The notes beneath the pieces are model-generated. The model ran no database searches, was not told the DNA's origin, and saw nothing but the letters and a program-made list of their open reading frames with translations. A DNA stretch of 64,000 bases from positions 210,213 to 274,212 of the forward strand of contig CBDFHH010000002.1 of assembly GCA_965247665.1 (NCBI GenBank). Direction: 5' to 3'. Of this stretch, positions 27,801-43,705 are shown one piece after another. Numbering within the stretch: the stretch's first letter is position 1; each line of letters opens with the position of its first letter. Source of the DNA: Alphaproteobacteria bacterium. GTDB lineage: Bacteria; Pseudomonadota; Alphaproteobacteria; SHVV01. A program made the position numbers and the translations under genes.

Positions 27801-27993
27801 GTCGACCCAGTTCTGGGTGCAACTCTCGACCGCGGTCGTGAGCGGTCTCACCTTCGCCACGATACTGACCCTGGTGGTCACGCCGTCATTGCTGGCGCTG
27901 CAGATCCACGGTCGCCGATCGATCGACAATTTCGGCATGCGCTGGCGCAAGCGTTTCCGCCCGTCCACGGTGGACGCCTACCCCGCCGAGTAA
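24811..27993 (+). CDS. RND efflux permease (AcrB/AcrD/AcrF family)
   Basis: 1060-aa, 12-TM protein with two large periplasmic loops. Its start overlaps the adaptor stop. Confidence 0.95.
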   Translation: MKAVIDAAIDRSRTVLMALALILIAGTVAYISIPKESDPDVNIPIIYVGMKHDGISPEDGERLLVWPMEQELRSIEGIKEMRSTATEGYASVLLEFDAGFDADLALADVREKVDVVKAELPQETDEPTVNEVNVSLFPVIVIMLSGEMPERTLLRLAHDLQDVLEGLPGVLAANIVGNREELLEVVVDPVRLESYRINQEELIRAIDFNNRLVAAGALDTGAGRFSVKVPGLFESAKDVLEIPVKTDGDAVVTLADVTEVRRTFWDATSFARLNGRPTVALEIQKRIGFNVIDTIDDVRAAVADEQTHWPSAVEVTFIQDQSEFIDTLLTDLQNNVISAVLLVMIVVLVALGMRSSALVGMAIPSSFLIGILYLYLFGMTINIVVLFSLILAVGMLVDGAIVVTEFADRKMAEGSHKREAYATAAKRMAWPITASTLTTLAAFMPLLFWPGVVGEFMKFLPITLIVTLSGSLLMALIFLPTLGSIFGKVGTSNERTLKRLAATEIGAIEDIDGFTGGYARTLHVLIRRGWGASAVVATAVVLLVGVQIAYGKFGAGMEFFPDVDQDSAFVLVHARGNLSSEEKDVLMSEVEQRVMLLDEFDAVYTQTGFSGEGQDQAEDVIGRVMLEFKPWRERRRGDAILADLRERTADIPGIVVEMRKPDSGPPTGKDIRIELASRNPELLPPTVQLLRDHLEQNVAGLIDLEDSRPIPGIEWQLEVDRAQAGRYASNVFDVGNLVQFVTNGVKVGEYRPSDTDDEIEIRVRFPDADRSITQLDTLRVQTPKGLVPISNFVKRVPKPKVGQINRIDGFRVLTVQANVADGVLVDDKVKEIGAWLETGPVPAGVDWRFKGQDEEQRKAQDFLSKAFGVALFIMAIILVTQFNSFYHAFLILTAVIMSTIGVMIGLLVTGQPFGIVMTGVGIITLAGVVVNNNIVLIDTFVRLRNTGMDGIEAVVRTGAQRLRPVLLTAITTIFGLLPMVLSMNVDFLAPEIAFGAPSTQFWVQLSTAVVSGLTFATILTLVVTPSLLALQIHGRRSIDNFGMRWRKRFRPSTVDAYPAE

Positions 27994-28289
27994 ACGCGAA
28001 ACAAGCCCGCCGTTCAGCGCCCTGGCCGCCCCCGACCGTCGTGCGTATTCTCACGGGTCGCAAAACACCAGGAGGGAGAATGTTCCGCGTCGTGATTGTC
28101 GGGGCCGGCTCGGCCGGCGCCGTGCTGCGGCGGCGGCCGCGTTCAACGGCAGCGGTTGGATCGTCGATGCCACCGTTATGGCGCTCGAATCCAACATCGA
28201 AGAACGCTCGGCGGGTCTCGACAGGTTGGTTACCGCGGACCGGGTCTCGCCGCGGCCATCGCGGCGGCACCGACTTGGCGGGTTGAGCC

Positions 28290-29696
28290 GTGCCGCGCAG
28301 CGCGCTCCCCTCGATCGATCGCCTGCTGCGGCACAACCGCAGCGAAGCGCTCATCACCAGGTTCGGGCGCGCCGCGACCACCACCGCGCTCAGAACCGCG
28401 GTTGCCGAAATGCGGAGCGCCCTGGCCGACGAGGACTCGATCGCGGTGTCCGAAACCGGTCTCGTAAAACGCGCCGCTGCGTTGCTCGCTGCCCAGCGGC
28501 GACCTCACCTGCGACCGGTGTTCAACCTCACCGGCACGGTACTGCACACCAATTTGGGCCGCGCCCTGCTACCTCGGGAAGCGGTCGCGGCAATGACGGA
28601 AGCGGCGACGTGTGCGACCAATCTTGAGTTCGACCTCGATCGTATGCGCCGCGGCGACCGCGACGACCATATCGAGGACGAGTTGCGCGAACTCACCGGT
28701 GCCGATGCGGCAACGGTGGTCAATAACAACGCCGCGGCGGTGCTGCTGGTGCTCAACAGTCTGGCGCAACGCAAGCAAGTGCCGATATCGCGCGGCGAGC
28801 TGATCGAGATCGGCGGTGCGTTCCGTATCCCCGAGGTCATGGCCCGCGCCGGCGCCAAGCTGCGCGAAGTCGGCACGACCAACCGCACGCATCTCGAAGA
28901 CTACGCCGAGGCGATCAGCTCCTCGACAGGGCTGGTGATGAAGGTTCATCCGAGCAACTTCGAGGTGCAAGGGTTCACCGCCGCCGTCGCGGAGACCGAT
29001 CTCGCGGCGCTGTGCCGCGAGCGCGGGGTGCCGTTTGTCGTCGACCTCGGCAGCGGCGCCCTCACCGATCTCAGCCGCTTCGGCCTGCCCCATGAACCGA
29101 CGCCGGCGGAAACGCTGGCGGCGGGGGCCGACATCGTCACCTTCAGCGGCGACAAGCTGCTCGGAGGGCCCCAGGCCGGTATCATCGTCGGTCGCGGCGA
29201 TCTCGTCGCCCGGATCAAGCGCAACCCCATGAAGCGGGCGCTGCGCTGCGACAAGGTCACGCTGGCCGCGCTGTCGGCGGTGCTGCGGCTATACCGCGAT
29301 CCCGACCGCCTCGCTGAACGCATCCCGACGCTTCGCCTGCTGTCACGCTCCGCCGAGGAACTCGCCGCCCTCGCCGAGAGGATCGCAAAGGCACTGGCGC
29401 CTGCCCTCTCCGAAGTTGCGGCGATCGAGATCGTCGATTGCCGGAGCCAGATCGGCAGCGGCGCGTTGCCGACCAAAACCGTCCCCAGCAAGGGACTGGC
29501 CTTGCGGCCCATCACCGGCAAACCCGGCAGCGGCACCGTGCTCAAGCGCCTGCTCGCGGGTTTTCGCGACCTGCCGGTTCCGGTTCTCGGTCACGTGCAT
29601 GACGGTGCACTGGTATTCGATCTGCGTTGTCTCGAAGACGAGGCCCGATTCACCGGCCAGCTCGCGCAGCTTTCGTTCGCGCGGAGTCGGTCATGA
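28290..29696 (+). CDS. selA: L-seryl-tRNA(Sec) selenium transferase
   Basis: N-terminus LPSIDRLLR and PLP-lysine motif [13 protein letters not shown]. 468 aa. Confidence 0.9.
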
Positions 29697-31690
29697 TTAT
29701 CGCCACCGCCGGTCACGTCGATCACGGCAAGACCTTGTTGATTCGGGCGCTCACCGGTATCGATACCGACCGCCTGCCCGAGGAAAAGCAGCGCGAGATG
29801 ACCATCGATCTCGGCTTCGCCTACCTGCCGCTGCAGGCGGACCGGTCGATCGCGTTCATCGACGTGCCCGGGCACGAGCGTTTCATTCGCAACATGCTGT
29901 GCGGCGTTGCCGGCATCGATTTCGTCGTGTTGGTGGTCGCCGCCGACGACGGCATCATGCCGCAGACCCGTGAACATTTGGCGATCCTCGACCTGCTCGG
30001 GGTCACCGACGGCGTCGTCGCTTTGACCAAGATCGACCGCGTCCACAACGACCGCGTCGAGACCGTGACGGGCGAAGTCGGGAACCTGTTGGCCCCGACC
30101 ACCTTGGCCAATGCCCGAATATACCCGGTTTCGGCCGCGACCGGCGCAGGCATCGACGAGCTTCAGTCGCACATCGTCGCGGCAGGCCGCGCGTGGTCGC
30201 CGGCCCCGATGCGCGGTGCATTCCGCCTCGCCGTCGATCGCTGCTTCCATGTCATCGGCGCCGGGGTCGTGGTCACCGGCACCGTGTTCGCCGGCACCGC
30301 CGCCGTTGGCGACGAATTGTTGGTGCAGTCCAAAGATCTGCCGCTGCGCGTGCGCGGCCTTCACGCCAACAACCGCGCCGCGCCCCAAACTCGGTCAGGC
30401 CAGCGCTGTGCTCTCAACATCGCCGGTCAAGGGGTTACCCGCCGGACTGTTACACGCGGCGACTGGATCGTCGCTCCGCCGTGCGCCGCGCCGGTGCGCC
30501 GCCTCGATACGCGTTTGCGCGTGCTCACCTCCGAGCACCGCCCGTTCGCGCATTGGACGCCGGTTCACGTTCACCTCGGTGCCGCCGAAACCACCGGCCG
30601 CGTCGCTGTGCTCGAGGGCAAGGAGCTAGCGCCGGGCTCGGACGCCCTCGCCCAGCTCTACCTCGATCATCCCGTCGGTGCCTGCCATGGCGACTGTTTC
30701 ATCGTGCGCGACCAATCGGCGCGGCGGACGATCGGCGGCGGACATGTCATCGATATCCACCCGCCCGCGCGCGGTCGCGCCAGGCCGGAGCGGCTCGCCG
30801 CCCTCGCCGCCATGGACGTGGCCGATCCCGCGGCAGCGCTGTCGGCCCTGCTTGCGGCCACGCCGAACGGGATCGAGCTCACCGCGTTTCGCAACGCGCG
30901 CAATCTGACCGGTCGTGAAGCCGAGGCGGTTTTCGAGGCCGTTCCGCACCGCCGTGTCGCCCGCCGAGGCGGCGCGCGCGCTTTCTCCGCCAGCCACTGG
31001 CAGCATTGGCGCGAAACGGCGCTCGCTAACCTCGCCGCCTGGCACCGATCCTCGCCTGCCAACCCCGGCCTACCGGAAAAGCAGCTGCTCGCCGGGTCGG
31101 GCCTGCGGACACCGGCCGAAGTCAGCGCGACCCTGGCGCGCGAACTAGCCGACCGGGGCACCGTGGTGCGCGAGGGGGCCGTGGTGCGATTGCCGACTCA
31201 CGACGCCGCGCCGGCGTCCGGCGAGAGGGTACTGGGGCAACGTATCGATGCCATGCTGGACGAAACCGGCCGGGTTCCTCCAACTTTGCACGAGCTGGCC
31301 GAGGCGCTGCAAACCAGCGTGCGCAAGATCGAGAAACTTCTGCTTTCCTCGGCTCGCCGCCGCGGCCTCGCACGGGTCGGAGCGAACCGGTTCTTCAAAC
31401 GCGCCACGCTGCGCGATCTCGGAACCGTCGCCGAACAGCTCGCTGCCGGGTCGGCGGACGGCCGTTTCAGCGTCAAGGAGTTTCGCGATCACGCCGGCAT
31501 CGGACGCAATCTCGCCATCGACGTGCTGGAGCATTTCGACGCGGTGAAATTCACGCGACGGGTTGGTGATGGGCGCGAGATCGTGCGGCCGCTTGCCCAG
31601 GTATTCGCTTCCGATCAAGATGGCCGGGACGGCACGGACCAGGGAAAAGAATCGCACCCCGGTGGGGCGCCCGGACTTCAAATCCGGTGA
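29693..31690 (+). CDS. selB: selenocysteine-specific elongation factor
   Basis: G-domain motifs [15 protein letters not shown] and TKID, plus winged-helix C-terminal repeats. ATG 29693 overlaps the selA stop (ATGA). The last 48 nt overlap tRNA-Sec. Confidence 0.9.
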
Positions 31691-31738
31691 GGGGCGTTCG
31701 ACGTCCCTGGTGGGTTCGACTCCCACTCTTTTCCGCCA
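31643..31738 (+). tRNA. selC: tRNA-Sec (anticodon UCA)
   Basis: 96 nt. 8-bp acceptor GGAAAAGA/TCTTTTCC, anticodon loop CTTCAAA, long variable arm, 4-bp T-stem TGGG-TTCGACT-CCCA, G-CCA end. Collinear with E. coli selC. Confidence 0.9.
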
Positions 31739-31982
31739 TGCCGCGCTCCAAATGCCGATAACGACCACCACCTGATCGACCCGCCGCATGCCGCCGTCAT
31801 CCTCGAACGGCGGTTCATGGACGAGTGGGCGCCATGGTACGGAACGCAGGGCGAAGCGGGACGCGCCGGCTTGTCTCGCCGCGTGCAACCAACGCGATCG
31901 CCTGCCGATCTCCCTGATCGCGCCGAATCCGGCAGGTGAGGTCGGCTTGACCGCTACAGGGGCGGCGCGCTACGAGGACGGC

Positions 31983-32462
31983 ATGGCCGAGAAACTTGGC
32001 GTTGGCGCGACCTTCCCGACCTTCCCTTTGGCCCTCGTTGACGGACGCACGATCACGCTGGCCGGGCAGCTCGAGGGCCGTTATCGCGTCATCCTGTTTT
32101 ATCGCGGTCATTGGTGACCGCATTGTCGCCGGCAGTTAGCCGGCTTCGAGGGACGCAAACAGGAGCTCGATGATCTCGACATCAGCGTGATCGCGGGCAG
32201 CATCGATCCCATCGACCAAGCCCGCGAGGTCGCCGACGAGGTTTCGTTTCCCATCGCCTACGAAGTACCGCGCGAGGTCGCCGATGCGCTGGGCTCGTGG
32301 TGGGAAGACCGGCGCGGAATTATCCAGCCGTCGGAATTTCTAATTGGCAGCCACGGCAAGGTGGTGTGCTCGAGCTACAGCGACGGACCTATCGGCCGCT
32401 TCGACGCCAAAGCGCTGATCGGCTTGGTGAGGTTCTACGAATCCCAGGCGGCCAAGTCCTAG
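31983..32462 (+). CDS. Prx-like/AhpC-TSA-family thiol:disulfide oxidoreductase selenoprotein (in-frame UGA at 32115-32117, redox motif U-P-H-C)
   Basis: ORFs 31788..32117 and 32187..32462 are in the same frame and joined by an open frame across one TGA. The joined product reads ...RVILFYRGHW-U-PHCRRQLAGF..., the F-x-R-G-x-W-C-P-x-C context of redoxin-type proteins. A hairpin lies 11 nt downstream of the UGA. The gene sits directly after selC. Confidence 0.75.
32128..32144 (+). promoter_or_regulatory. SECIS-like hairpin (GCCGGC-AGUUA-GCCGGC)
   Basis: 6-bp GC stem with a 5-nt loop containing GU. The loop G is at about +21 from the U of UGA, close to the fdhF SECIS spacing. Confidence 0.55.
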
Positions 32463-32510
32463 ACCGGAACCAGATTAGATCCACGGCAACGGTCGTCGCC
32501 GCCGAGCCGA

Positions 32511-34757
32511 TCAGAGCTTCACCGCTACCGGCCGCGCGCTGCCGTTACCCGGCCCGACCGATCCGATCACCGCGCTGTCGCTATAGCCCAGCGCGCGCAG
32601 CTCGGCGAGGCATGCGTCGCCCCGGTGGTCGGGTACGCCGGCCAACAGGCCGCCGGCGGTCTGCGGGTCGAACAGGAGCCGGATGCGTCGATCGTTGGTG
32701 TCGAAACCATCAAGGTTGGTGGTGGCTTCGCCTTGGGCGGCATTGCTGGCCTGGAGCGAAGATTCGATCCCGGCGGCCAGACTCTCCGCAGCGCCTTCCA
32801 GCGCCGGCACCGCGTCCGCATCCAGCACGACGCTCACCTCCCCCGGCTTGACCATCTCGGCGAGATGGCCGGCGAGGCCAAAGCCGGTGACGTCGGTGCA
32901 GGCGGTCGCGCCGTGGCGCATGAGGCAGGCGGCGGCCTCGCGGTTCGACTTGAGCATCGAGGCGACCGCCCCGGCGATCCAGCTCCCTTTGGCCTTGCCT
33001 CGCATTTCGGCGGCGAACAGCGTACCGGTGCCGATGCCCTTGGTCAGGATTAGGCGCTGGCCCGGGCGCAGGTCGCTCTTGCGCAGCAAACGGGTTTCTT
33101 CAGCCAGGCCGTTGACCGAGAATCCCAAGGCCAGCTCAGCGCCTTCGCCGCTGTGGCCGCCGATCAGCTGGGCGCCGGCTTCGCATAGAACTTCGCCCGC
33201 ACCGGTCAGCAGCTGGGTCAGCGTGTCCTCGATTCTGAGTTCGAGGCCGAAGGGGATCGTCACGATGGCAAGCGCGGTCTGCGGCTCAGCCCCCATCGCG
33301 TAGATATCGTTGAGGCAGTGGTGAGCGGTGATCTTGCCGAACAGATAGGGGTCGTCGACCATCGACCGGAAGGAATCGACGGTTTGCACCAGCACCATCC
33401 CCGGCGGCACAGTCACCACCGCGGCGTCGTCGGGGCAGTCGAGGCCGATCAGGACGTCGTTACGGTGGATCCCGTTGATCTTGGCAATAACCCTTGCGAG
33501 GACCGGCGCCGGGATCTTCGCGCCGCAGCCACCGCAGCGCATAGCTGACGCCCGCACCGCGGCCCTGACCTGGACCGTGTCGAGTCCCGCCGGCAGCTGT
33601 AGCGGTGTCGGTTCCGGCATTGCCGGCAGATCGTTGAACCTGCGCATGAACCGGCGGTCAATCCAATCCTTCCAACGCCACGCCCAGCGGCCTTCGAGCG
33701 ACCAATTGGCGCGGGAGGCGATGGCGTGTTGGGGTCCAGTCGATATCAGGCTGAGGAAGCGTCGTTGCGGCGCGAACGGCCGCGGCGTTCGGCCAAGCAC
33801 GGCGCGGCGCAGGTTGCGGACGAGCGGCCGTCCCTGCCGCACCGCAAACACCCCCGATTTCGGCCGTGGGTGATTGACCGCGACGGCCGCATCGCCGGCG
33901 CCGAACACGTTATCGTGCGACGTCGAGCGCAGACAGTCGTCGATTTGGAGAAACCCCCGCTGGTCGACCGCAAGACCGGATTCCCGCAACCAGGGCGGTG
34001 CCGCCGCCTGCGTCACCCACAGGATCTCGTCGAGCGCGATTGTTCCGCCGCTGCCATCGTGCAGCTCCCCCGGCCTCACCTCGGTGACGTGAAAACGGGT
34101 GTGGATCTGCACGCCGATCCGTTCGAGGTGGCGGCGCACACGTCGGGCGGCGTCACGGCCGTGGCCGATCAGCAGATCGGGTTCTTCGGTTACCAGGCAA
34201 AACGCGTGATTGGCCTCGTTTCGGAGCCGATGCGCGACGGCCAACATCAGCTCGACGCCGCCGGCGCCGCCGCCGACCACGCCGATACGGAGACCATCCT
34301 CGTGGGGTCGCACGCGCTCCTGCAATCGCGCCCAATGCGATGCGAAACGGCTGATCGGCTTGACCGGCACGGTGTGTTCGGCGGCGCCAGGGATATCGGC
34401 AGTGTTGGGCGTTGATCCCGCGTTGATCGAGACCAGGTCGTAGGGAATGGCGGGGCGGTTGGCGCAGTTCACCAGCTTCGCGTCAAGAACGATGCCGGTG
34501 ACCTCGTCAACGAACAGGCGCGCCCCTGCAAACCGCGCCAGCACCGCCAGGTCGATATGGATGTCGTCGAAGCTATAGTGCCCGGCGATGAAGCCCGGCA
34601 GCATTCCCGAATAGGGCGTGTACGGGTCGGGCGAGACCAAGGTCAGGCGGACGCCGGGGATCGGCTTCATGCCAAAGCGCCGCAGCACGGCGACGTGGGT
34701 GTGGCCGCCGCCGATCAGCACGATGTCCTTGACGATGGGGATGTTGGACCCGTTCAC
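32511..34757 (-). CDS. selD: fusion protein: N-terminal FAD/NAD(P)-binding pyridine-nucleotide-disulfide oxidoreductase (NDH-2-like) + C-terminal selenide, water dikinase
   Basis: 748 aa. N-terminus IVLIGGGHTHV and a second Rossmann motif GVVGGGAGGVE. The C-terminal half starts with MRCGGCGAKIP (Cys-type SelD active site) and continues with an AIR-synthase-like fold. Confidence 0.9.
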   Translation of the reverse strand: MNGSNIPIVKDIVLIGGGHTHVAVLRRFGMKPIPGVRLTLVSPDPYTPYSGMLPGFIAGHYSFDDIHIDLAVLARFAGARLFVDEVTGIVLDAKLVNCANRPAIPYDLVSINAGSTPNTADIPGAAEHTVPVKPISRFASHWARLQERVRPHEDGLRIGVVGGGAGGVELMLAVAHRLRNEANHAFCLVTEEPDLLIGHGRDAARRVRRHLERIGVQIHTRFHVTEVRPGELHDGSGGTIALDEILWVTQAAAPPWLRESGLAVDQRGFLQIDDCLRSTSHDNVFGAGDAAVAVNHPRPKSGVFAVRQGRPLVRNLRRAVLGRTPRPFAPQRRFLSLISTGPQHAIASRANWSLEGRWAWRWKDWIDRRFMRRFNDLPAMPEPTPLQLPAGLDTVQVRAAVRASAMRCGGCGAKIPAPVLARVIAKINGIHRNDVLIGLDCPDDAAVVTVPPGMVLVQTVDSFRSMVDDPYLFGKITAHHCLNDIYAMGAEPQTALAIVTIPFGLELRIEDTLTQLLTGAGEVLCEAGAQLIGGHSGEGAELALGFSVNGLAEETRLLRKSDLRPGQRLILTKGIGTGTLFAAEMRGKAKGSWIAGAVASMLKSNREAAACLMRHGATACTDVTGFGLAGHLAEMVKPGEVSVVLDADAVPALEGAAESLAAGIESSLQASNAAQGEATTNLDGFDTNDRRIRLLFDPQTAGGLLAGVPDHRGDACLAELRALGYSDSAVIGSVGPGNGSARPVAVKL

Positions 34758-35350
34758 CCGTATGGCCGCCCAATTGAGGTCGCTCTCGCAAAGCAGGTTC
34801 TAATGTAGGCCTCCCGCTGGTTGTCCGGGGCATGGAGGGCAACGCGGGTCATCTCTTATCGGGTCTCCCGATCCTCGCCGGCGTCCGGCCGCATCGTCGT
34901 TGACGGCATTCAGCCGCTCGAACGCCTCGCGGGCGATCTGCCGACTGATGAGCCGGGCGATTGTCAGCACGGCGGACTCTACCCCGGATTCCGCCGTCCT
35001 ATTATCGTTCGCAGCTCCGCCGCGCTTGAGGGCAATGGTACGCGCCTAGTCCCCGATCATTCTCGACCCTATTCCAGGAAAACCTCGATAACGGTCCAGA
35101 ATTGATCTGAGCGGGCAGCGGCGTCAACATACTTAAGTCAATAATTTCGTGCAGTTAGGTCATATATTGGCACACTCGAGCTCTTGTCGGTGAAGCCCAA
35201 GATACGCCAGCCAATGTGAAGCGATACATGAAGAGTTAGGAGTGTCCTGTCGCTATCCTACCACGGGTATTGATTGGAATCTGATCTGGTCAGGCAGCCG
35301 ATATTTTGTTCATCAACGACCATCTGTGCATCCAAAAAAGCACTTAAGGA

Positions 35351-35872
35351 TCAAACCCGGCATATCGGGTAATTCGGCTGCTTTTCATTCCATGCCTCTA
35401 TTTCATTCCATGCCTCTATATTGAACACCAAGCACTGCTCCACAAACGACCGAACCCAATTTCCAGATTGTGGCCCCTTTATCGGTAACTGTCTTTTCAA
35501 TGCATCAGTTCGTGTGAGCATGTCCGCAGGAGTTAGACTTTCGATGGCGACAAGAACGAAATAGTGGATAGGTTTTTCAGCGTTCCTCGATGCCCATTCA
35601 TAAATAAACGAATCTCGATATTTGTATTTCAGATCTTTGTCCAATTTTCCACTAAGGAAATCACTAATAAACTTCTCGCTATTGGCGGGTTGTGCTCCCG
35701 GCTGTTCCGGGTCTTTAAATTCAATGAAGAGAAGCTTATCGTCCAGTTCAACCACGAAATCTACTGCCTTCATGCAATGCGATAACCCATGGGTGTTTTG
35801 GTTATCAAATTTCTTGGCCTGCGTTCCGCGTGGAAAGGTGATTTGAAGGTTCCCTTCGATAAGCGTGGTCAC
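35351..35872 (-). CDS. 173-aa PD-(D/E)xK-like (restriction-endonuclease-fold) protein, partner of the upstream ATPase
   Basis: GTG start lies 2 nt after the ATPase stop. Motif AVDFVVELDDKLLFIEFKD (D-x12-E-F-K). Low GC. No family assignment is possible by eye. Confidence 0.6.
   Translation of the reverse strand: MTTLIEGNLQITFPRGTQAKKFDNQNTHGLSHCMKAVDFVVELDDKLLFIEFKDPEQPGAQPANSEKFISDFLSGKLDKDLKYKYRDSFIYEWASRNAEKPIHYFVLVAIESLTPADMLTRTDALKRQLPIKGPQSGNWVRSFVEQCLVFNIEAWNEIEAWNEKQPNYPICRV
35384..35419. repeat. perfect 18-bp tandem duplication (TTCATTCCATGCCTCTAT x2) inside the 3' end of the 173-aa ORF
   Basis: Read directly. It encodes a duplicated IEAWNE hexapeptide. Confidence 0.95.
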
Positions 35873-35874
35873 TC

Positions 35875-36891
35875 CTAAATTCCTCTCAAGCTGCGTTTAA
35901 CCTCACGGTCGTACAGATCGGCAAAGGCTTCGGCGATTGTATTTGGATGTATGTCCAGATAGCTATGCCCGGTATGACAAGCTATCTCTTTGCTTTCTGG
36001 ATCTCTGTAAAGAGAATGAAAGGAAACTTTATCACCGTCCTTCGTTCTTAGATCAAATTCCTTTAGAATCACATAGTCGTGCGTTGCCAGAAAGATTTGC
36101 ACCCCTGCTCGCTGTAATGTAAGGAAAATTTCTATCAAAGAACCGAATAACTTTGGATTTAAGTTAGTTTCAGGTTCATCCCAAAACAACACAGATCCTT
36201 TGAGAAGGGCGCCATTCTGGATTAGAAGCCACAACAAACCAAGTTTACGCATACCCTCCGCAAGCAAGGAAAACTCAAGATTACCCTGCCGATTCCTGAG
36301 GAAAAATTCTTCTTCTTTTGTCGTGACCTTCCCTTCCATAATATCCTGCAAGATCGAGAGTAATTTTTTCCGATCTCTATCCACCGGGCCTCTTAATGGT
36401 GGCCGGTATGCGCGGGTAAGGATGTCTGCATACACCGCTTCAAAATGTATTTCGCGTTGTGAATAGAGAGAGCGGAATCCGGGCGCATTTGCGAGCATTT
36501 CTTTTACAGGGATGTAAACGCTTTCAATGGGGGCCTCGGCCCAATTTTTCGCACCAATGACCCTGGCAGAATCAGGAACGGTTCCGTGATTGGAGAACGA
36601 AACCCTAAGTTTTTTATTGTCTCGGAATACTTCGAGGGCACATCGCGAGCTGGTTTTATGGCGCTTTACTAATCGTCCAATGGCTCTTCCTGACGGTAAG
36701 AATATCTGAATGAGCTTTTCGGCGATGGCGACCTTTGTTTTGCTGACGTCACAGGCTGTATACGCAACCTTCATAATGTGCGTCTTACCGGTTCCGTTGG
36801 CACCAACAAGAACGTTGATTCCCGGTGACGCCATAAAATCAAGTTTCTCGAATGCTGTGAAACGCTCAAACTTCACTCTCGTGATTGTCAT
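35875..36891 (-). CDS. stand-alone ABC-type (AAA_15/AAA_21-like) ATPase, 338 aa
   Basis: Walker A GANGTGKT, signature-like LLAEGMRKLG, Walker B VLFWDEPETNLNP, H-loop LATHD. ATG 36891 follows AGGGG (a TTG at 36915 is also open). No additional domain. Confidence 0.8.
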   Translation of the reverse strand: MTITRVKFERFTAFEKLDFMASPGINVLVGANGTGKTHIMKVAYTACDVSKTKVAIAEKLIQIFLPSGRAIGRLVKRHKTSSRCALEVFRDNKKLRVSFSNHGTVPDSARVIGAKNWAEAPIESVYIPVKEMLANAPGFRSLYSQREIHFEAVYADILTRAYRPPLRGPVDRDRKKLLSILQDIMEGKVTTKEEEFFLRNRQGNLEFSLLAEGMRKLGLLWLLIQNGALLKGSVLFWDEPETNLNPKLFGSLIEIFLTLQRAGVQIFLATHDYVILKEFDLRTKDGDKVSFHSLYRDPESKEIACHTGHSYLDIHPNTIAEAFADLYDREVKRSLRGI

Positions 36892-37702
36892 GCACTTCCC
36901 CTGGCCAGTGCTCAAGGAGCTCCCCGTTCGACATGCTAATTCATGAATTGCGCGGCTTCTATCAATCTGACAAGCGAAAAGGATTCAGTGTTGCTTCGAG
37001 GCATTCGATCTACGCTCCAAGACTTTGCACGTAGGGGCGATTGACGAGGCGGGAATTGGGAGTGCTTTTGCGATATCTCCTGGACCAGACACGGTTCGAC
37101 GCCGCGCTGGCGGAGCCATCTCGATACCTGCACGCGGTACAACTGGGCGGATTATCTAAGAACATTCGCAGCAGCCTACGGGGTCGAAGCGTGAGCCGAC
37201 CAAGTTGGGTTACCATACGGCCCGCGTTCGTGTGTCGCTCGGGAGAGAACTGCGTGGCGAAATCTTGGTCTCGAAAGCTATAGCGCCACTCATCCTGGCG
37301 CCCGCCAAGGCCTGCCGTGCGCTCAATCGCCGGGCAGACTCCGAATAACTTTCCTCGTCGTACCCGGATTATCGTGTCGCTCTTCCTTTCAGCGGGCGCC
37401 ATCTAGACATTCCTTCGGAATGTTGAAACAGGGACACGACAGCCGCGCGCTACACCATGACTACTGACCGGAAGCAGACCGGAACTGGCGCCGATCGCTT
37501 TAGATTCTAGCCGGACGCGGACGGACTTAATGCCCGATCCCGTCATGATTTCCCCGTGTTCGAATCGAATTCGTTTCGAAAACGCGACGGCGCAACGGCG
37601 CGACGACAAGTAGTCGGATAGCGTGGTAACGTTGGAGCCGCATTTGGAGTGCGATCAGAGAAGGCTAAAGGAGCCAAGATGACCGTCCCTCCGAACATGT
37701 GA

Positions 37703-38299
37703 ATGGCCATTCTGGACCACATCCAGAATTACCGCTGGCCCAAGAAGGGTGATCGACTCCTGCGGGAGTGCCCGGACGGGGAACGCGGTGCAGAATTTTC
37801 GAACGACGCCATTTCCCGGCATGTCCATGTCTGGGACGGTAACATGAAGGCCGGGGCAATTCTCATTAGTGCATGCGAGGAAGGCAGTCACGAACGCCAC
37901 GATCTGATTTACCCGATTCTGCTCAACTATCGCCACGCCATTGAATTGGCGATGAAATGGGTCATTTCACGGTATGGCCGCTATTCGACTGTTCAAATGG
38001 GTGACTTCCAGCATCATGATCTCTGGATGCTCTGGTGCTTGTGCAAACAGATCATTATTGAGGTTGGATCAGAGAGTGAGAGGATCCCCGTAGTCGAACA
38101 GGTGATCAAGGACCTCCACGACTTGGATAAATCGGGACAGACTTTTCGCTATTCCAGTTCCAAAGCGGGTGTCCCGATACAGCTGCCGGAGTACACGATC
38201 GATCTGCCAAACATCCGGGATGTGATGGAGGGTATAGCCCATTTCTTTGATGGCGTGGATGGCCAGCTAGATGCCCACTCATCCGCAGCAGATTGGTAA
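37703..38299 (+). CDS. 198-aa uncharacterised, predicted all-helical protein
   Basis: Low-GC ORF, divergent from the ATPase pair. Motifs are LIYPILLNYRHAIELAMKWV, HHDLWMLW and GQTFRYSS. Not assignable to a family by eye. Confidence 0.55.
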   Translation: MAILDHIQNYRWPKKGDRLLRECPDGERGAEFSNDAISRHVHVWDGNMKAGAILISACEEGSHERHDLIYPILLNYRHAIELAMKWVISRYGRYSTVQMGDFQHHDLWMLWCLCKQIIIEVGSESERIPVVEQVIKDLHDLDKSGQTFRYSSSKAGVPIQLPEYTIDLPNIRDVMEGIAHFFDGVDGQLDAHSSAADW

Positions 38300-38394
38300 G
38301 TGTAAGGCTTCCCCAGTGGGTTACTTCTCGTGGTACCGCCCGATCAGATCGGAGTCACAAGAAAATGTCGATCTCGGCGACGGCGGCGGTGCGG

Positions 38395-39090
38395 TTATCG
38401 GACTTCGCCCCTGCGCTGAGCCTCGCGCGAACGCTCATCGACGAGAACGGTCTCGCCAGCGACGGTGCGCTGGCCGACGACGACCTGGGGACGCATGCCG
38501 TCCGCGAGATAGACATCGACCCTGCTGCCGAAGCGGATCAAGCCGTAGCGCTCGCCCGCCCGCACCTCTTGACCTTCAGTCGCGTTGCAGACGATGCGGC
38601 GCGCAAAGCGGCCGGCGACCTGCACCACCGCGATCTCCTTGCCGCTGATCGTCTTAAGCAACACGGATTCGCGTTCATTGTCTTCACTATCCATCGCTTG
38701 CGGGTGCGACGCGGCGAACGCGCCGGCCCGATGCACGACCCGCGTAACCGTACCGCTCGCCGGCATGCGCTGAATATGGACGTCCTTCAGGCTGATATAG
38801 ATGGCGATTCGTGTCAGCGGGTCGTCGCCCATATCGAGCTCTTCCGGCGGCACGGCCGGACCGATCTGCGCCACCAAACCATCGGCAGGGGCGATGATCA
38901 GCTTGACGCGGATGGGCGTGACTCGGTCGGGATCGCGGAAAAAGAAAGCGCAGGCCAGCGTCAGCGCCAGGATCAGCCAGCCCAGAGGATCCCAGATATA
39001 GAAAAAGAACAGCGTCAGCACGAGGCCGACAGCGATGAACCTGTAGCCCTCGCGATTGATGGGCACGAGGATGTTTTCGAGCCAGTTCAC
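38395..39090 (-). CDS. psd: phosphatidylserine decarboxylase (short alphaproteobacterial type)
   Basis: 231 aa with two N-terminal TM helices. Self-cleavage region is IRFGSRVDVYL. Confidence 0.9.
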   Translation of the reverse strand: MNWLENILVPINREGYRFIAVGLVLTLFFFYIWDPLGWLILALTLACAFFFRDPDRVTPIRVKLIIAPADGLVAQIGPAVPPEELDMGDDPLTRIAIYISLKDVHIQRMPASGTVTRVVHRAGAFAASHPQAMDSEDNERESVLLKTISGKEIAVVQVAGRFARRIVCNATEGQEVRAGERYGLIRFGSRVDVYLADGMRPQVVVGQRTVAGETVLVDERSREAQRRGEVR

Positions 39091-39243
39091 GTTTTACTCG
39101 CACCGGAAAAATGACTTTCGTCCAAGACCTTAGCATGAAGATCGCGCGCTATATATAAACCTGCGCCAAGCCAAACCGAGCACAGGGCGCAGCTCTACCC
39201 GCTGGTCGGCGCGCGACACGCCCGGCACCCAATAACCGGCTCC

Positions 39244-41130
39244 CTACCCGCCGGTCGCCAGCGCCTCGAGCTCGCGTTGGCGCCGCGCCGCTTCCTGCTG
39301 CTTGGCCCACATCGCCGCATACCGGCCACCCTTAGCGAGCAACGCCGAATGCGTACCGCGTTCGGCGATCTCGCCATCGTCGAGCACCAGAATCTCATCG
39401 GCATCGATGACCGTTGACAAGCGGTGGGCAATCACCAGCGTCGTGCGGTTTTGCGAGACCTCCGCGAGATTCGCTTGAATTTCCTTTTCCGTGTGAGAGT
39501 CGAGCGCCGAGGTCGCTTCGTCGAAGATCAGGATCTTGGGGTCCTTGAGGATGGTGCGCGCGATCGCCACGCGTTGCTTCTCGCCGCCGGACAGTTTCAG
39601 GCCGCGTTCTCCGACCACGGTGGCAAGCCCATCGGGCAATACGTCGATGAAATCGGCGATGTGAGCCATGCGCGCGGCGTGACGAATCTCATCATCGCCG
39701 GCGCCGGGGTGGCCGTAGCGGATGTTGTAGGCGATCGAAGCGTTAAACAGCACCGTGTCCTGCGGCACGATACCGATCGATTGGCGCAAGGACCCTTGCG
39801 CGACGTCTAGCAGATCCTGCCCGTCGATCCGGATTGCGCCGTCGGTCACGTCGTAGAAGCGGTATAGCAGCCGCGCGATGGTCGACTTGCCGGCACCGGT
39901 GGGACCGACGATCGCCAGCGACCTGCCCGGGGCGACCCGGAACGATACGTCCTTGAGGATCGTCCGCCGCCGGTCGTAACCGAAGGAAACGTGATCGAAC
40001 ACGACCTCGCCGTCATCGACCGCGATCGGTCTGGCATTGGCGGCGTCCTTGACCTCGGGCTCAATCAGGGTCAGCTCGAACATCTTCTCCATGTCCACCA
40101 GGGATTGCTTGATCTCGCGATACACGAAACCGAGGAAATTGAGCGGCAGGTAGAGTTGGATCAGGAAGGTGTTCACCAGCACGAAATCGCCGAGCGTCAT
40201 GGTGCCGTTGGCGACCCCGCGCCCGGCCAGCAGCATCACCACAATCAGACCTGCCGAGACGATCGCGCCCTGGCCGATATTGAGCAGCGACAGCGAGACC
40301 TTGCTACGCACGGCGGCGGTCTGATAGCGCTCGAGCGCGCTGTCGTAACGCGAGGCTTCGTGCCGCTCGTTGTTGAAATACTTGACCGTCTCGTAGTTGA
40401 TCAGACTGTCGATCGCCTTGGTGTTGGCTTCGCTGTCGGTGCGGTTCATCTCGCGCCGGTACTTGATACGCCACTCGGTGACGCTGACGGTCCAGGCGAT
40501 GAAACCGGCGATCGTAACGAAGGTCACCAAGCCCAGCCAGAAGTCGTAGCGCACCAGTAGAATGCCGCAGACCAGGAAGATCTCGAGCAGCGTCGGCAAA
40601 ATGTTGAACAATGTGAAGTTGAGAATGAATTCGATCGCCTTGGTGCCGCGTTCGATGACCCGCGACAGCCCACCGGTTTGACGATCGAGGTGGAAGCGCA
40701 AGGACAGGGCGTGCAGGTGGTTGAACGTCGCCAGCGCGACCGTGCGGATGGCATGCTGTCCAACCCGTGCAAATGCCGCATCGCGTAGTTCGCCGAACGC
40801 CTGAACGAACAGGCGCGCGACGCCGTAGCCAACGACGAACGCAATCGGTACGGCAATCACCGCGGCCTCGGTGTCGAGCGCGTCGATCGCGCCCTTATAG
40901 AGAAACGGCACATAGACGTTGGTGACCTTGGCCGCGACCAGGAACGACACGGCCAAAGCGACGCGCACTTTCAGGTTCCAGTATCCGCGCGGCCACAGGA
41001 ACGGTACCAACGACCGGATCGTGTCGAAATGCGTGCGTCCCACGCCGTCGGCGTGGGCGTCGAATTGGGTTGATCGGCTCACCGCGATCTCCAGCCCGCT
41101 AGTGTTGCCAACCTCGCTTGATCCAACCAA
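39244..41130 (-). CDS. ABC transporter, fused permease/ATPase, Atm1/HMT-type exporter
   Basis: 6-TM N-domain. Walker A GPTGAGKST, signature LSGGEKQR, Walker B ILIFDEATSALD. Confidence 0.9.
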   Translation of the reverse strand: MVGSSEVGNTSGLEIAVSRSTQFDAHADGVGRTHFDTIRSLVPFLWPRGYWNLKVRVALAVSFLVAAKVTNVYVPFLYKGAIDALDTEAAVIAVPIAFVVGYGVARLFVQAFGELRDAAFARVGQHAIRTVALATFNHLHALSLRFHLDRQTGGLSRVIERGTKAIEFILNFTLFNILPTLLEIFLVCGILLVRYDFWLGLVTFVTIAGFIAWTVSVTEWRIKYRREMNRTDSEANTKAIDSLINYETVKYFNNERHEASRYDSALERYQTAAVRSKVSLSLLNIGQGAIVSAGLIVVMLLAGRGVANGTMTLGDFVLVNTFLIQLYLPLNFLGFVYREIKQSLVDMEKMFELTLIEPEVKDAANARPIAVDDGEVVFDHVSFGYDRRRTILKDVSFRVAPGRSLAIVGPTGAGKSTIARLLYRFYDVTDGAIRIDGQDLLDVAQGSLRQSIGIVPQDTVLFNASIAYNIRYGHPGAGDDEIRHAARMAHIADFIDVLPDGLATVVGERGLKLSGGEKQRVAIARTILKDPKILIFDEATSALDSHTEKEIQANLAEVSQNRTTLVIAHRLSTVIDADEILVLDDGEIAERGTHSALLAKGGRYAAMWAKQQEAARRQRELEALATGG

Positions 41131-41361
41131 GCGCGTTTGGCAACCGGTTTCGCTTCATTTCCAAACATTTGCCCGACCAATGTTCCCTGAGTTTGGGCCA
41201 CGGGGCCGACGCGGCAGCGGCGATCCAAACAATCGCATCCCATGCCATTGCCGGCGCGCCTGCATCAGGCGGCGGTACTCGTCGACGGCCTGGCTTGCGC
41301 CTGCCCCCCGCTCGAGGATTGCGGAGCGTTCGGCGGGGCCTATCGACCCCGACAGCTCGAG

Positions 41362-43705
41362 TTAGTTGGAAGCGGGATCGGGCGGAACCACGAAGATCTG
41401 GTCAGGATAGATCAGGTGGGGATCGCTGATCTGCTCGGCGTTGGCCGCGAATATCAGAGTGTATTTGATGCCCATCCCGTAAGTCGCACGGGCGATGCGC
41501 CACAGACTGTTGCCGGGCTTAATCACGACCGTGCCAGGTGCCAGCGCGCCGGGTTTGATCGTCGCGCGACTGAACGCCAGGTTGAGCTTAGCCAACACGA
41601 CGCCGCCCTCGTCGACCTCCTCGATCCGAATCGCGTGTTGGCCGGATATCACGGGCTCGGATGGCGAGATCTGCCAGTCGCCGGCGGCGTCGGTCTCCCC
41701 CGTGCCCACGGTCTGATCGTCAAACTTGGCGTGGACCTCGCTGCCCGGCGTTGCCTTACCCGACAGCACCACCCGGCCTTCGTCGTCATAGTCGATGACT
41801 TTAAGGCTGAGATCCTCTCCGGTCTTTTCCTCCTCCGGTTTCGCCAACTCGGCCCCCTCCGCAGCCGTGGGCGGCGCGTCGGTCGTGGCTGGGGAGGAGT
41901 CCTGCGATGCGCCGGGTTTCGCTTGCGGATCGGGGTCCTTGACGGTCTCGGCCGGTTTGGGTGGTGGCGGCGCCTGCAGCAACTTACTGCCGCCGCCCTC
42001 GCGCGGCGTCAACACCACGACGGGAGCGCGCTGCTCGCCCTCGCCCTTGGGCGTCTTCCCCGGTACGAACAGCACCACCACGTCCTTGGACGATTTCCGC
42101 TCGCCCGCCACGGTCTTCTGTTCCAGGCTCAACTGACGGGCGCCGCTCGGTAACGGTTTTTCCGGCACCAATACCCACTCGCCACGCTCGTCCGCGGTCA
42201 CCTTGCCGACCACGTTGCCGGCATCCTTGACGGTCACCTCGGCGCCGGGATCGGCCCGCCCGGCGATGACCGCATCGCCTTGGGGGTTGACCCGGACAAC
42301 ATCAAAGCTGGGCGGCTTGGCCTCGCTCTCCTGCCGTGCCGTGGGTTCGGCTGCTTCCGTCTTCGCGGTTTCGGGCGGCGACGGCTCGGCCGCCGGCGAC
42401 ACCGCTTCGGCAACCACCGTCTCTTGCCGCGCCGTGGGTTCGGTCGCCTCCGTCTTTGCGGTCTCGGTTGTCGGCGATGCCGCCTCGGTTGTAGCCGGCG
42501 CTTGGTCGGCCATCGCCGTCTCTTGCCGCGCCGCGGGTTCGGCTGCCTTCGTCTTCGCGGTTTCGGTCGTCGGCGGTGCCGCGTCGGCCATCGCCGTCTC
42601 TTGCGGCGCCGCAGGCTCGGCTGCCTCCGTCTTCGCGATTTCGGTCGTCGTCGGCGCCGCGTCGGCCACCGCCGTCTCTTGCGGCGCCGCAGTGTCGGCC
42701 GCCTTCATCTCCGCGGTCTCGGTTGTCGGCGGCGCCGCGTCGGCCATCGCCGTCTCTTGCTGCGCCGTAGGCTCGGCTGCCTTCATCTTCGCGATTTCGG
42801 TCGTCGTCGGCGCCGCGTCGGCCACCGCCGTCTCTTGCGGCGCCGCAGTGTCGGCCGCCTTCATCTCCGCGGTCTCGGTTGTCGGCGGCGCCGCGTCGGC
42901 CCGCGTCGGCCACCGCCGTCTCTTGCGGCGCCGTAGGCTCGGCTGCCTTCATCTTCGCGATTTCGGTCGTCGTCGGCGCTGCGCCGGCCACCGCCGTCTC
43001 TTGCTGCACCGCAGGCTCGGCTGCCTCCGTCTTCGCGATTTCGGTCGTCGTCGGCGCCGCGTCGGCCACCGCCGTCTCTTGCGGCGCCGCAGTGTCAGCC
43101 GCCTTCATCTCCGCGGTCTCGGTTGTCGGCGGCGCCGCGTCGGCCATCGCCGTCTCTTGCGGCGCCGCAGGCTCGGCTGCCTTTGTCTTCGTGGGGTCGG
43201 TTGTCGGTGACACCGCGTCGGCCATCGCCGTCTCTTGCTGCGCCGTAGGCTCGGCTGCCTTCATCTCTGCGGTCTCGGTCGCCGGCGACACCGCGTCGGC
43301 AACCACCGTTTCTTGCGGCGCCGCAGGCTCGGCTGCCTCCGTCTTCGCGGTTTCGGTTGTCGGCGGCGCCGCGTCGGCCATCGCCGTCTCTTGCGACGCC
43401 GCAGTGTCAGCCGCCTTCATCTCCGCGGTCTCGGTTGTCGGCGGCACCGCGTCGGCCATCGCCGTCTCTTGCGGCGCCGCAGTGTCAGCCGCCTTCATCT
43501 CCGCGGTCTCGGTTGTCGGCGGCGCCGCGTCGGCCATCGCCGTCTCTTGCGGCGCCGCAGGCTCGGCTGCCTTCGTCTTCGCGGTCTCGGTTGACGCCGG
43601 TGCCGTGTCACCCGCTCCCGGTCCAAACCGGAACGCATCTAAATAGATGGCGGCAACGACCGCAACGATCACCACGACCAGACTGGCGATGAGGGTTCCG
43701 CGCAA
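41362..43705 (-). pseudogene. membrane-anchored, repeat-rich LysM-domain protein, interrupted by a +1 frameshift (10-bp tandem duplication at 42891-42910)
   Basis: ORF 42302..43705 holds the TM anchor plus 26-aa repeats. ORF 41362..42864 holds more repeats, two Ig-like segments and a C-terminal LysM (VIKPGNSLWRIARATYGMGIKYTLIFAANAEQISDPHLIYPDQIF). The two join if one copy of CCGCGTCGGC is removed. Confidence 0.75.
42325..43588. repeat. about sixteen tandem 78-bp (26-codon) coding repeats, consensus peptide ETA(K/E)(T/M)KAAEPAAPQETAMADAAPPTT
   Basis: Periodicity read from the translation of both ORF halves. Confidence 0.9.

Follow-up and report, generated by a model that had tools for sequence, protein, structure and literature searches.

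A horizontally acquired HEC-02-type gene pair, a likely ATPase–nuclease anti-phage cassette, in an alphaproteobacterial genome

Introduction

Septu, which joins the ATPase PtuA to the HNH nuclease PtuB, and PARIS, which joins the ATPase AriA to the Toprim nuclease AriB, serve as models of nucleases that are restrained by a partner ATPase. Here, we analyze a gene pair of comparable layout, encoding a stand-alone ATPase and a small protein with a putative nuclease motif, in a 64,000-nucleotide stretch of DNA (hereafter the window; contig CBDFHH010000002.1 of assembly GCA_965247665.1, positions 210,213 to 274,212 of the forward strand) from an alphaproteobacterium of the lineage SHVV01.

The closest described system is HEC-02, ‘Hma-embedded candidate 02’, introduced by Payne, Hughes, Fineran and Jackson (bioRxiv 10.1101/2024.01.29.577857). 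HEC-02 was described as an ATP-binding cassette (ABC) ATPase together with a NERD-like PD-(D/E)xK protein; the authors argued that the ATPase is of the ABC type and not AAA+, and noted a (D/E/Q)xK signature in the small protein. A representative cloned in E. coli reduced the number of plaques of several phages, and both genes were needed. This anti-phage activity has been reported for a pair from Dickeya only, whose small protein is annotated as ‘cysteinyl-tRNA synthetase’ in RefSeq (Table S2 of bioRxiv 10.1101/2024.01.29.577857). Our literature search found no mechanistic work on HEC-02 after the Payne et al. preprint.

Judged by profile matches of both proteins, the pair in the window is a member of HEC-02, a system that is already catalogued, and not an undescribed one. 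We consider it likely that the pair constitutes a HEC-02-type ATPase–nuclease module of anti-phage defence, because of the hidden Markov model (HMM) matches, the intact motifs, the strict pairing of the two genes, their embedding in BREX-type systems elsewhere, and the existence of a tested, distant homologue. That this particular copy is active is considerably less certain than its class assignment.

Results

The two genes lie on the minus strand in the order ATPase, small protein, and comprise the following features:

35875..36891, minus strand: ATPase gene, 338 amino acids, ATG start at 36891
35873..35877, minus strand: gene junction, with the stop codon TAG at 35877-35875, 2 nt of spacing and the start codon GTG at 35872
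35351..35872, minus strand: small-protein gene, 173 amino acids, GTG start
35383..35418, within the minus-strand small-protein gene: exact 18-bp tandem duplication (35383-35400 and 35401-35418), two copies of TTTCATTCCATGCCTCTA on the plus strand

The longest open reading frame (ORF) over the ATPase gene, 35875..36915 on the minus strand, encodes 346 amino acids from a TTG codon, and the ATG at 36891 is internal to it. The ATG is supported as the start since the HEC-02 ATPase profile aligns from the first residue onwards (residues 1-335 to profile positions 1-334 of 337), a public gene call (P0391) also gives 338 amino acids, and homologues begin at the same residue. On the minus strand the junction reads ...AGA GGA ATT TAG GA GTG ACC ACG..., with a Shine-Dalgarno-like GAGAGGA within the last codons of the ATPase gene, ahead of the GTG of the small-protein gene. 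The two genes are thus translationally coupled and form one expression unit. Neither frame is a chance ORF, because database searches recover 5,290 ATPase relatives and, in a database clustered at 90%, 991 small-protein relatives, and the putative catalytic residues D38, E51 and K53 of the small protein are invariant or nearly so. A preliminary description of this DNA, made from the letters and their translations, had reported two minus-strand ORFs 2 nt apart in one expression unit, a set of ATPase and small-protein motifs, and an ATPase devoid of transmembrane, Toprim, HNH or helicase domains. The junction sequence agrees with the first of these points, the translations contain every motif quoted, and a Pfam search of the ATPase found none of the four domain types.

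Assignment to HEC-02 came from the models of PADLOC-DB v2. The ATPase matched the HEC-02 model PDLC04213 with an E-value of 1.7e-128 along the alignment given above, and the further HEC-02 models PDLC04146 (4.5e-65) and PDLC04214 (3.6e-56). The small protein matched PDLC04229 with 6.1e-60 (residues 1-157 to profile positions 1-158 of 171), along with nine more HEC-02 small-protein models. Other named systems matched the ATPase partially, namely AriA (1e-22), AbiLi (2e-13) and PtuA/GajA (1e-8 to 1e-9). The preliminary description had placed the pair in the class of ATPase-plus-nuclease defence modules, which the HEC-02 matches of both proteins bear out; it had also suggested that the proteins belong to no named family and might be an undescribed variant. 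Here the outcome is the opposite: a confident HMM match to a named system, which that description itself held to be incompatible with its proposal, was found for both proteins over their full length. As a side note for users of the database, two PADLOC-DB v2 models carry their A and B labels the other way round from the paper and from the remaining HEC-02 models, PDLC04146, a 344-position ATPase model, being named HEC-02B and PDLC04145, a 170-position small-protein model, HEC-02A.

The window pair shares with described HEC-02 the two-gene plan of an ABC ATPase followed by a protein of ~170 amino acids with a (D/E)xK motif. The experimentally tested locus, from Dickeya dianthicola NCPPB 3534, encodes WP_024108366.1 (342 amino acids) and WP_024108365.1 (169 amino acids); the ATPase gene comes first there as well, with a 4-nt gene overlap in place of the 2-nt spacing of the window. 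The two ATPases are 35% identical over 301 residues (E 3e-59). In BLASTP, similarity between the small proteins covers the N-terminal 59 residues only (31%, E 5e-5), and hhalign aligned them over 85 columns with 94.9% probability, pairing KAVDFVVE...LFIEFKD of the window protein with KAMDVVYI...WLIEVKD of its counterpart. With these motif blocks aligned, D38, E51 and K53 correspond to the D, E and K of the Dickeya protein. The best models of the Dickeya pair are PDLC04146 and PDLC04145, not the PDLC04213 and PDLC04229 of the window pair. The low identities and the different best models suggest that the window pair belongs to a HEC-02 subfamily other than the tested one. The window copy further differs from HEC-02 as described in lying solitary between housekeeping genes instead of being embedded, in the unique six-residue duplication of its small protein, and in that sequence searches with its subfamily did not reproduce the likeness to NERD reported for the Dickeya protein.

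The translation of the ATPase gene contains GANGTGKT, LLAEGMRKLG, VLFWDEPETNLNP (Walker B) and LATHD. These correspond to a Walker A motif G30-x4-G35-K36-T37, a signature-like S-L-L-A211-E212-G213, the Walker B pair D238-E239 and the H-loop H271. Conservation was assessed on 74 ATPases and 81 small proteins. G30, G35, K36, T37, D238, E239 and H271 are invariant in all 74 ATPase homologues, and A211 and E212 of the signature-like motif occur in 73. In Pfam, the protein matches AAA_21 (2.5e-22) and, at its N-terminus, AAA_15, with no other domain. NCBIfam has no model for either protein: all matches fall far below the cut-offs, among them weak RecF and Rad50 matches at the ATPase N-terminus. An AlphaFold model (pLDDT, the predicted local distance difference test, 74; pTM, the predicted template modeling score, 0.78) was compared with known structures by Foldseek and retrieved Rad50/SMC heads, Septu PtuA, retron-associated PtuA and OLD with E-values of 1e-11 to 1e-9 and template modeling (TM) scores of ~0.5; the top values were 1.1e-11 for Rad50 (4NCK) and 4.5e-11 for PtuA (8EEA), both with probability 1.00. 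The predicted structure thus identifies the 338-residue protein as an ABC-type (Rad50/SMC/PtuA-like) ATPase, not an AAA+ protein.

In the small protein, the segment AVDFVVELDDKLLFIEFKD carries D38...E51-x-K53. D38 and E51 are present in 81/81 sequences and K53 in 78; D23, K35, K84, R86, D87 and W161 are likewise invariant in all 81. Across both proteins of the window, positions conserved at 85% or more differ by only six conservative substitutions and one insertion. The predicted model of the small protein (pLDDT 84, pTM 0.83) opens with an N-terminal three-stranded sheet (residues 2-21), followed by a hairpin in which D38 stands just ahead of strand 39-42 and E51 and K53 lie on strand 47-53; two long helices, a strand (102-108), a helix, a further strand (144-151) and a C-terminal helix complete the fold. 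With the aspartate and the ExK on consecutive strands, the placement fits what a PD-(D/E)xK site requires.

Around 45 of the top 50 Foldseek matches of this model in the PDB are PD-(D/E)xK-fold nucleases, each of them non-significant individually. Archaeal Hjc resolvases rank first, and the nuclease neighbors further include XisH, AF1548, R.BspD6I/Nt.BspD6I, HincII, PspGI, Bse634I, RecU, MUS81, the R2 endonuclease domain and Hachiman HamA. A search of the viral library BFVD gave the same enrichment for nucleases, likewise with no match at or below 1e-3. In comparison with PD-(D/E)xK nucleases such as NERD, Hjc, XisH and RecU, the window protein shares the D...ExK hairpin followed by helices and a further strand; it is unlike them in the extra N-terminal three-stranded sheet and in the family-specific invariant residues, and it matches no single member significantly in sequence or structure. 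Neither Pfam nor NCBIfam had a match for the window's small protein, and Pfam had none for 35 aligned members of its family. A profile search of 1.84 billion representatives revealed no bridge to NERD; the 150 matches listed are all same-family proteins of ~170 amino acids. Taken together, the conserved motif and its modeled geometry make a metal-dependent PD-(D/E)xK nuclease, with D38, E51 and K53 as putative catalytic residues, the most likely identity of the small protein.

The family is widespread and thinly scattered. The profile search recovered 832 clusters at 50% identity, essentially all of stand-alone proteins of ~165-175 amino acids, and the small protein is encoded at 331 loci among ~185,579 species representatives, distributed over Thermodesulfobacteriota, Binatia, Gamma- and Alphaproteobacteria, Planctomycetota, Chloroflexota (Dehalococcoidia, Caldilineaceae), Nitrospirota and others. 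We fetched 80 of these loci to examine gene neighborhoods. Directly upstream of the small-protein gene and on the same strand, an ATPase homologue of 50-75% identity was found in every one of the 80, confirming the co-occurrence that the preliminary description had put forward as a check. At 58 loci the two genes share 4 nt, and at seven they show the +2 nt spacing of the window. Pairing of the ATPase with the small protein is thus obligate across many phyla.

BREX-type neighbors (BrxC/PglY, N6_N4 methylase, SNF2 helicase, PglZ), detected with proteins from two Methylococcus loci (L001 and L002) as probes, occur in 30/80 loci and on both sides of the pair in 24. In the two Methylococcus loci themselves, the pair sits between the N6_N4 methylase and the SNF2 helicase of a BrxC/PglY ... 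PglZ operon, a layout that we take to resemble type 3 BREX. The single IMG/VR contig that carries the pair again has a BREX-like layout, and in Kyrpidia tusciae the pair is found among type I restriction–modification, HicAB, PIN and HNH genes. The two closest relatives of the window ATPase (L091, 80% identical, and L092, 79%) show another arrangement, the pair standing alone among metabolic genes; DNA similarity between the window and these loci is limited to the two coding sequences (35462-36894, ~70% identity). In L092 (9020-10846), a DDE transposase splits the small-protein gene into parts encoding residues 1-61 and 86-173 by a 1.2-kb insertion. With its ATPase gene intact, this locus amounts to a naturally arisen knockout of the putative effector.

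Relatives of the ATPase are closer than those of its partner: the best database identity is 83% for the ATPase and 63% for the small protein, and one 125,331-bp contig combines an 80% ATPase match with a 61% small-protein match. The better conservation of the ATPase suggests that the presumed effector evolves faster than the presumed sensor.

The closest systems outside HEC-02 are related by plan. Septu, including its retron-associated PtuAB form, likewise combines a lone ABC ATPase with a small nuclease, and the ATPase model has the PtuA structures 8EEA, 8EE4, 8SUX and 9N69 among its top matches in fold (E ~1e-10, TM ~0.5). The window effector carries a PD-(D/E)xK-type motif in place of HNH, and its ATPase has 338 residues compared with ~400-550 in PtuA. 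Membership in Septu was rejected: PtuA models match partially at 7.8e-9 or weaker, the NCBIfam PtuA model reaches 21.9 bits where the cut-off is 500, and HNH is missing. PARIS resembles the pair in combining a sensor ATPase with a separate nuclease effector, and was rejected as well, the AriA model PDLC02980 covering ATPase residues 170-276 only (1.1e-22), the partner having neither Toprim nor DUF4435, and no result pointing to Ocr-type triggering or tRNA cleavage. The likeness to Septu and PARIS drawn in the preliminary description therefore holds as an analogy between systems whose effector folds differ and whose ATPase models match weakly and in part.

The pair resides in an islet that a near-identical relative lacks. 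A contig from a metagenome (L005) aligns to the window by blastn with 98.1% identity at 24873-34811 and 95.8% identity at 38371-43546, and these alignments define the limits of the insert. The contig encodes an identical psd protein and lacks the insert, with 121 bp separating psd from the selD-fusion gene; in the window, 3,559 bp take the place of 43 bp. Apart from the pair, the islet contains the following features:

34812..38370, no strand assigned: window-specific insert of 3,559 bp, bordered by the start of the selD-fusion gene and by the end of psd
34812-35350, no strand assigned: islet segment of 539 bp, guanine–cytosine (GC) content 0.557, no recognisable content
36892..37702, no strand assigned: upstream spacer of 811 bp, GC content 0.568, presumably holding the promoter of the pair
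37703..38299, plus strand: orphan ORF of 198 amino acids, divergent from the pair, with 208 homologues

GC content is 0.508 across the islet as compared to 0.655 and 0.643 in the 10-kb flanks, and 0.453 and 0.444 in the ATPase and small-protein genes, respectively. At third codon positions (GC3), the pair has values of 0.46 and 0.48 versus 0.82 in the selD-fusion gene and 0.79 in psd. The empty site in the near-identical contig and the foreign GC3 establish that the cassette was recently acquired by horizontal transfer, as the preliminary description had proposed. Its outline of an AT-rich islet at 35.06-38.31 kb was correct as to the lower GC content and needs revision as to the limits: the insert spans 34812-38370 and is strongly AT-rich only at 35.0-36.9 kb, the rest having a GC content of 0.53-0.57.

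The islet is composite. The orphan ORF had no Pfam, PADLOC or NCBIfam match; its homologues sit among integrase, transposase, HEPN and restriction–modification genes, and it shares 81% nucleotide identity with a 5.78-Mb contig (L006) of the same metagenome as L005. A role as third component of the system was rejected, given that its homologues never adjoin HEC-02, which makes it separate cargo. The upstream spacer contains no conserved ORF by Pfam, no Rfam match, and no homology to the fetched loci or to plasmids. For the segment 34812-35350, too, conserved ORFs, Rfam matches and homology to the fetched loci were lacking; both it and 36892-37702 may derive from earlier cargo or constitute the regulatory region of the cassette. 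Searches at the islet borders revealed neither a target-site duplication nor terminal inverted repeats, integrase, transposase or a tRNA; scans of the islet for terminator consensus sequences and RNA families gave nothing useful, and no match for the islet DNA or the small protein turned up in plasmid and phage records. A metagenome scan with psd, bearing on whether this site is an insertion hotspot, found only one relative of 35% identity, and no database record matches the selD-fusion protein exactly.

The exact 18-bp tandem duplication in the small-protein gene is in frame, with 100% identity between copies, and inserts IEAWNE (residues 152-157) where the C-terminal helix begins, adjoining the invariant W161. 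None of the 80 genomic and 34 database homologues has this insertion. Being in frame and perfectly identical between copies, the duplication appears recent; that it is functional, polymorphic or an assembly artefact are all possible.

Discussion

Our analysis favors a HEC-02-type module of anti-phage defence. The cassette would have arrived by horizontal transfer and inserted between psd and the selD-fusion gene. By analogy to Septu PtuAB and PARIS AriAB, the ATPase would most likely act as infection sensor and regulator that binds the nuclease and holds it in check until a cue from the phage or an altered nucleotide state licenses it. The small protein would then be the effector, cutting nucleic acid and so ending the infection, perhaps with loss of the cell.

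Several points weigh against this reading or temper it. Judged by sequence, the known phage defence belongs to another HEC-02 subfamily and not to that of PDLC04213/PDLC04229, and complex formation, trigger and substrate are all inferred by analogy. The nuclease fold of the small protein is probable and not statistically secure: in the PDB, Foldseek gave no match at or below 1e-3, with a best E-value of ~0.1 (range 0.1-0.8) and TM scores of 0.2-0.34; Pfam NERD (PF08378) matched none of 35 family members even at E-values up to 10; and a profile of the family against PDB sequences returned chance-level matches only (ferritin, La protein). Of the PD-(D/E)xK proposal in the preliminary description, the conserved D...ExK motif thus stands firmly and the fold less so. 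The window copy is neither embedded in nor next to any recognised defence system, and a scan of the minus strand, restricted to the sigma-70 consensus, found no consensus promoter for the pair. The six-residue duplication unique to this small protein may affect its function.

A related question is whether this HEC-02 subfamily forms a mechanistically distinct system with another substrate, such as RNA, tRNA, or modified or structured DNA, or another trigger. The notion arises from the 35% and ~30% identities to the tested pair and from the missing tie to NERD or any solved nuclease, and we consider it rather unlikely. If it held, the invariant D23, K35, K84, R86, D87 and W161 and the N-terminal β-sheet might recognise the substrate, and the conservation gap between the two proteins would point to diversifying selection acting on the effector and not on the sensor, contrary to what is usually expected of such pairs.

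The alternative closest to the HEC-02 defence module is that the pair is a HEC-02 homologue inactive in this organism, a decaying passenger disabled by the 18-bp duplication or by lost expression signals. The six-residue insertion is unique among 81 sequences and adjoins an invariant tryptophan, a consensus promoter was not found upstream, and the transposase-split gene of the relative L092 demonstrates that such cassettes do get inactivated. However, both frames are intact with all putative catalytic residues in place, only six conservative substitutions besides the insertion depart from the consensus at 85% or above, the in-frame duplication is accommodated in the modeled helix at a pLDDT of ~80, and the promoter scan covered the sigma-70 consensus only. 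We therefore regard an inactive copy as unlikely.

It is less plausible still, and in our view very unlikely, that the pair is a selfish addiction module akin to toxin–antitoxin systems, with the nuclease as toxin, the ATPase as antidote and persistence through post-segregational killing. Such a module would account for a tightly coupled cassette that moves alone, its DNA homology to the nearest relatives being confined to two coding sequences, and for the patchy spread across phyla; the pair is often found among toxin–antitoxin genes, and the Pfam description of AAA_21 reads ‘putative AbiEii toxin, Type IV TA system’. Against this stand the protection from phages by the tested homologue, which needs both genes, and the recurrent embedding within BREX-type defence operons. 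Moreover, abortive infection and toxin–antitoxin-like behavior are compatible, which makes this reading a nuance more than an alternative.

A housekeeping repair or recombination module, in which a Rad50/RecF-like ATPase and a Holliday-junction-resolvase-like nuclease act on host DNA, is suggested by the Rad50/SMC heads as best matches of the ATPase model, the weak N-terminal RecF/Rad50 matches in NCBIfam and the archaeal Hjc resolvases at the top of the small-protein fold matches, but is highly improbable given that the pair is missing in a relative of 96-98% identity, has a foreign composition, occurs at so few loci and in unrelated phyla, is embedded in BREX-type systems, lacks a coiled-coil insertion and an Mre11-type partner, and matches those NCBIfam models far below their cut-offs.

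For the HEC-02 defence reading, the practical value lies in correct annotation: a pair of ‘hypothetical proteins’ becomes a HEC-02 defence cassette, a label that any PADLOC run would assign. The finding opens no new category of system. To the published description it adds the strict ATPase–nuclease pairing across many phyla, the observation that the cassette travels as a bare two-gene unit, either BREX-embedded or alone among housekeeping genes, and a clean pair of filled and empty sites. With its environmental breadth, the subfamily is a reasonable target for mechanistic work.

Additional observations

Two features of the surrounding DNA may be recorded. A tRNA-SeC gene (31643-31738) lies 3 kb from the islet, next to the 748-residue selD-fusion gene (32511-34757), in which a pyridine-nucleotide-disulfide oxidoreductase domain is fused to selD-type AIRS/AIRS_C. 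As selA and selB are nearby in the near-identical metagenome contig, the islet has come to lie at the border of a selenocysteine gene cluster. Further along, a 78-bp tandem repeat at 42484-43609 (14.3 copies, 84% matches) encodes 26-residue repeats inside a large ORF without a Pfam domain (804 amino acids in L005), which has cytochrome c genes on one side and an ATM1-like ABC transporter on the other; these internal repeats are the source of many off-diagonal blastn matches between the window and L005.

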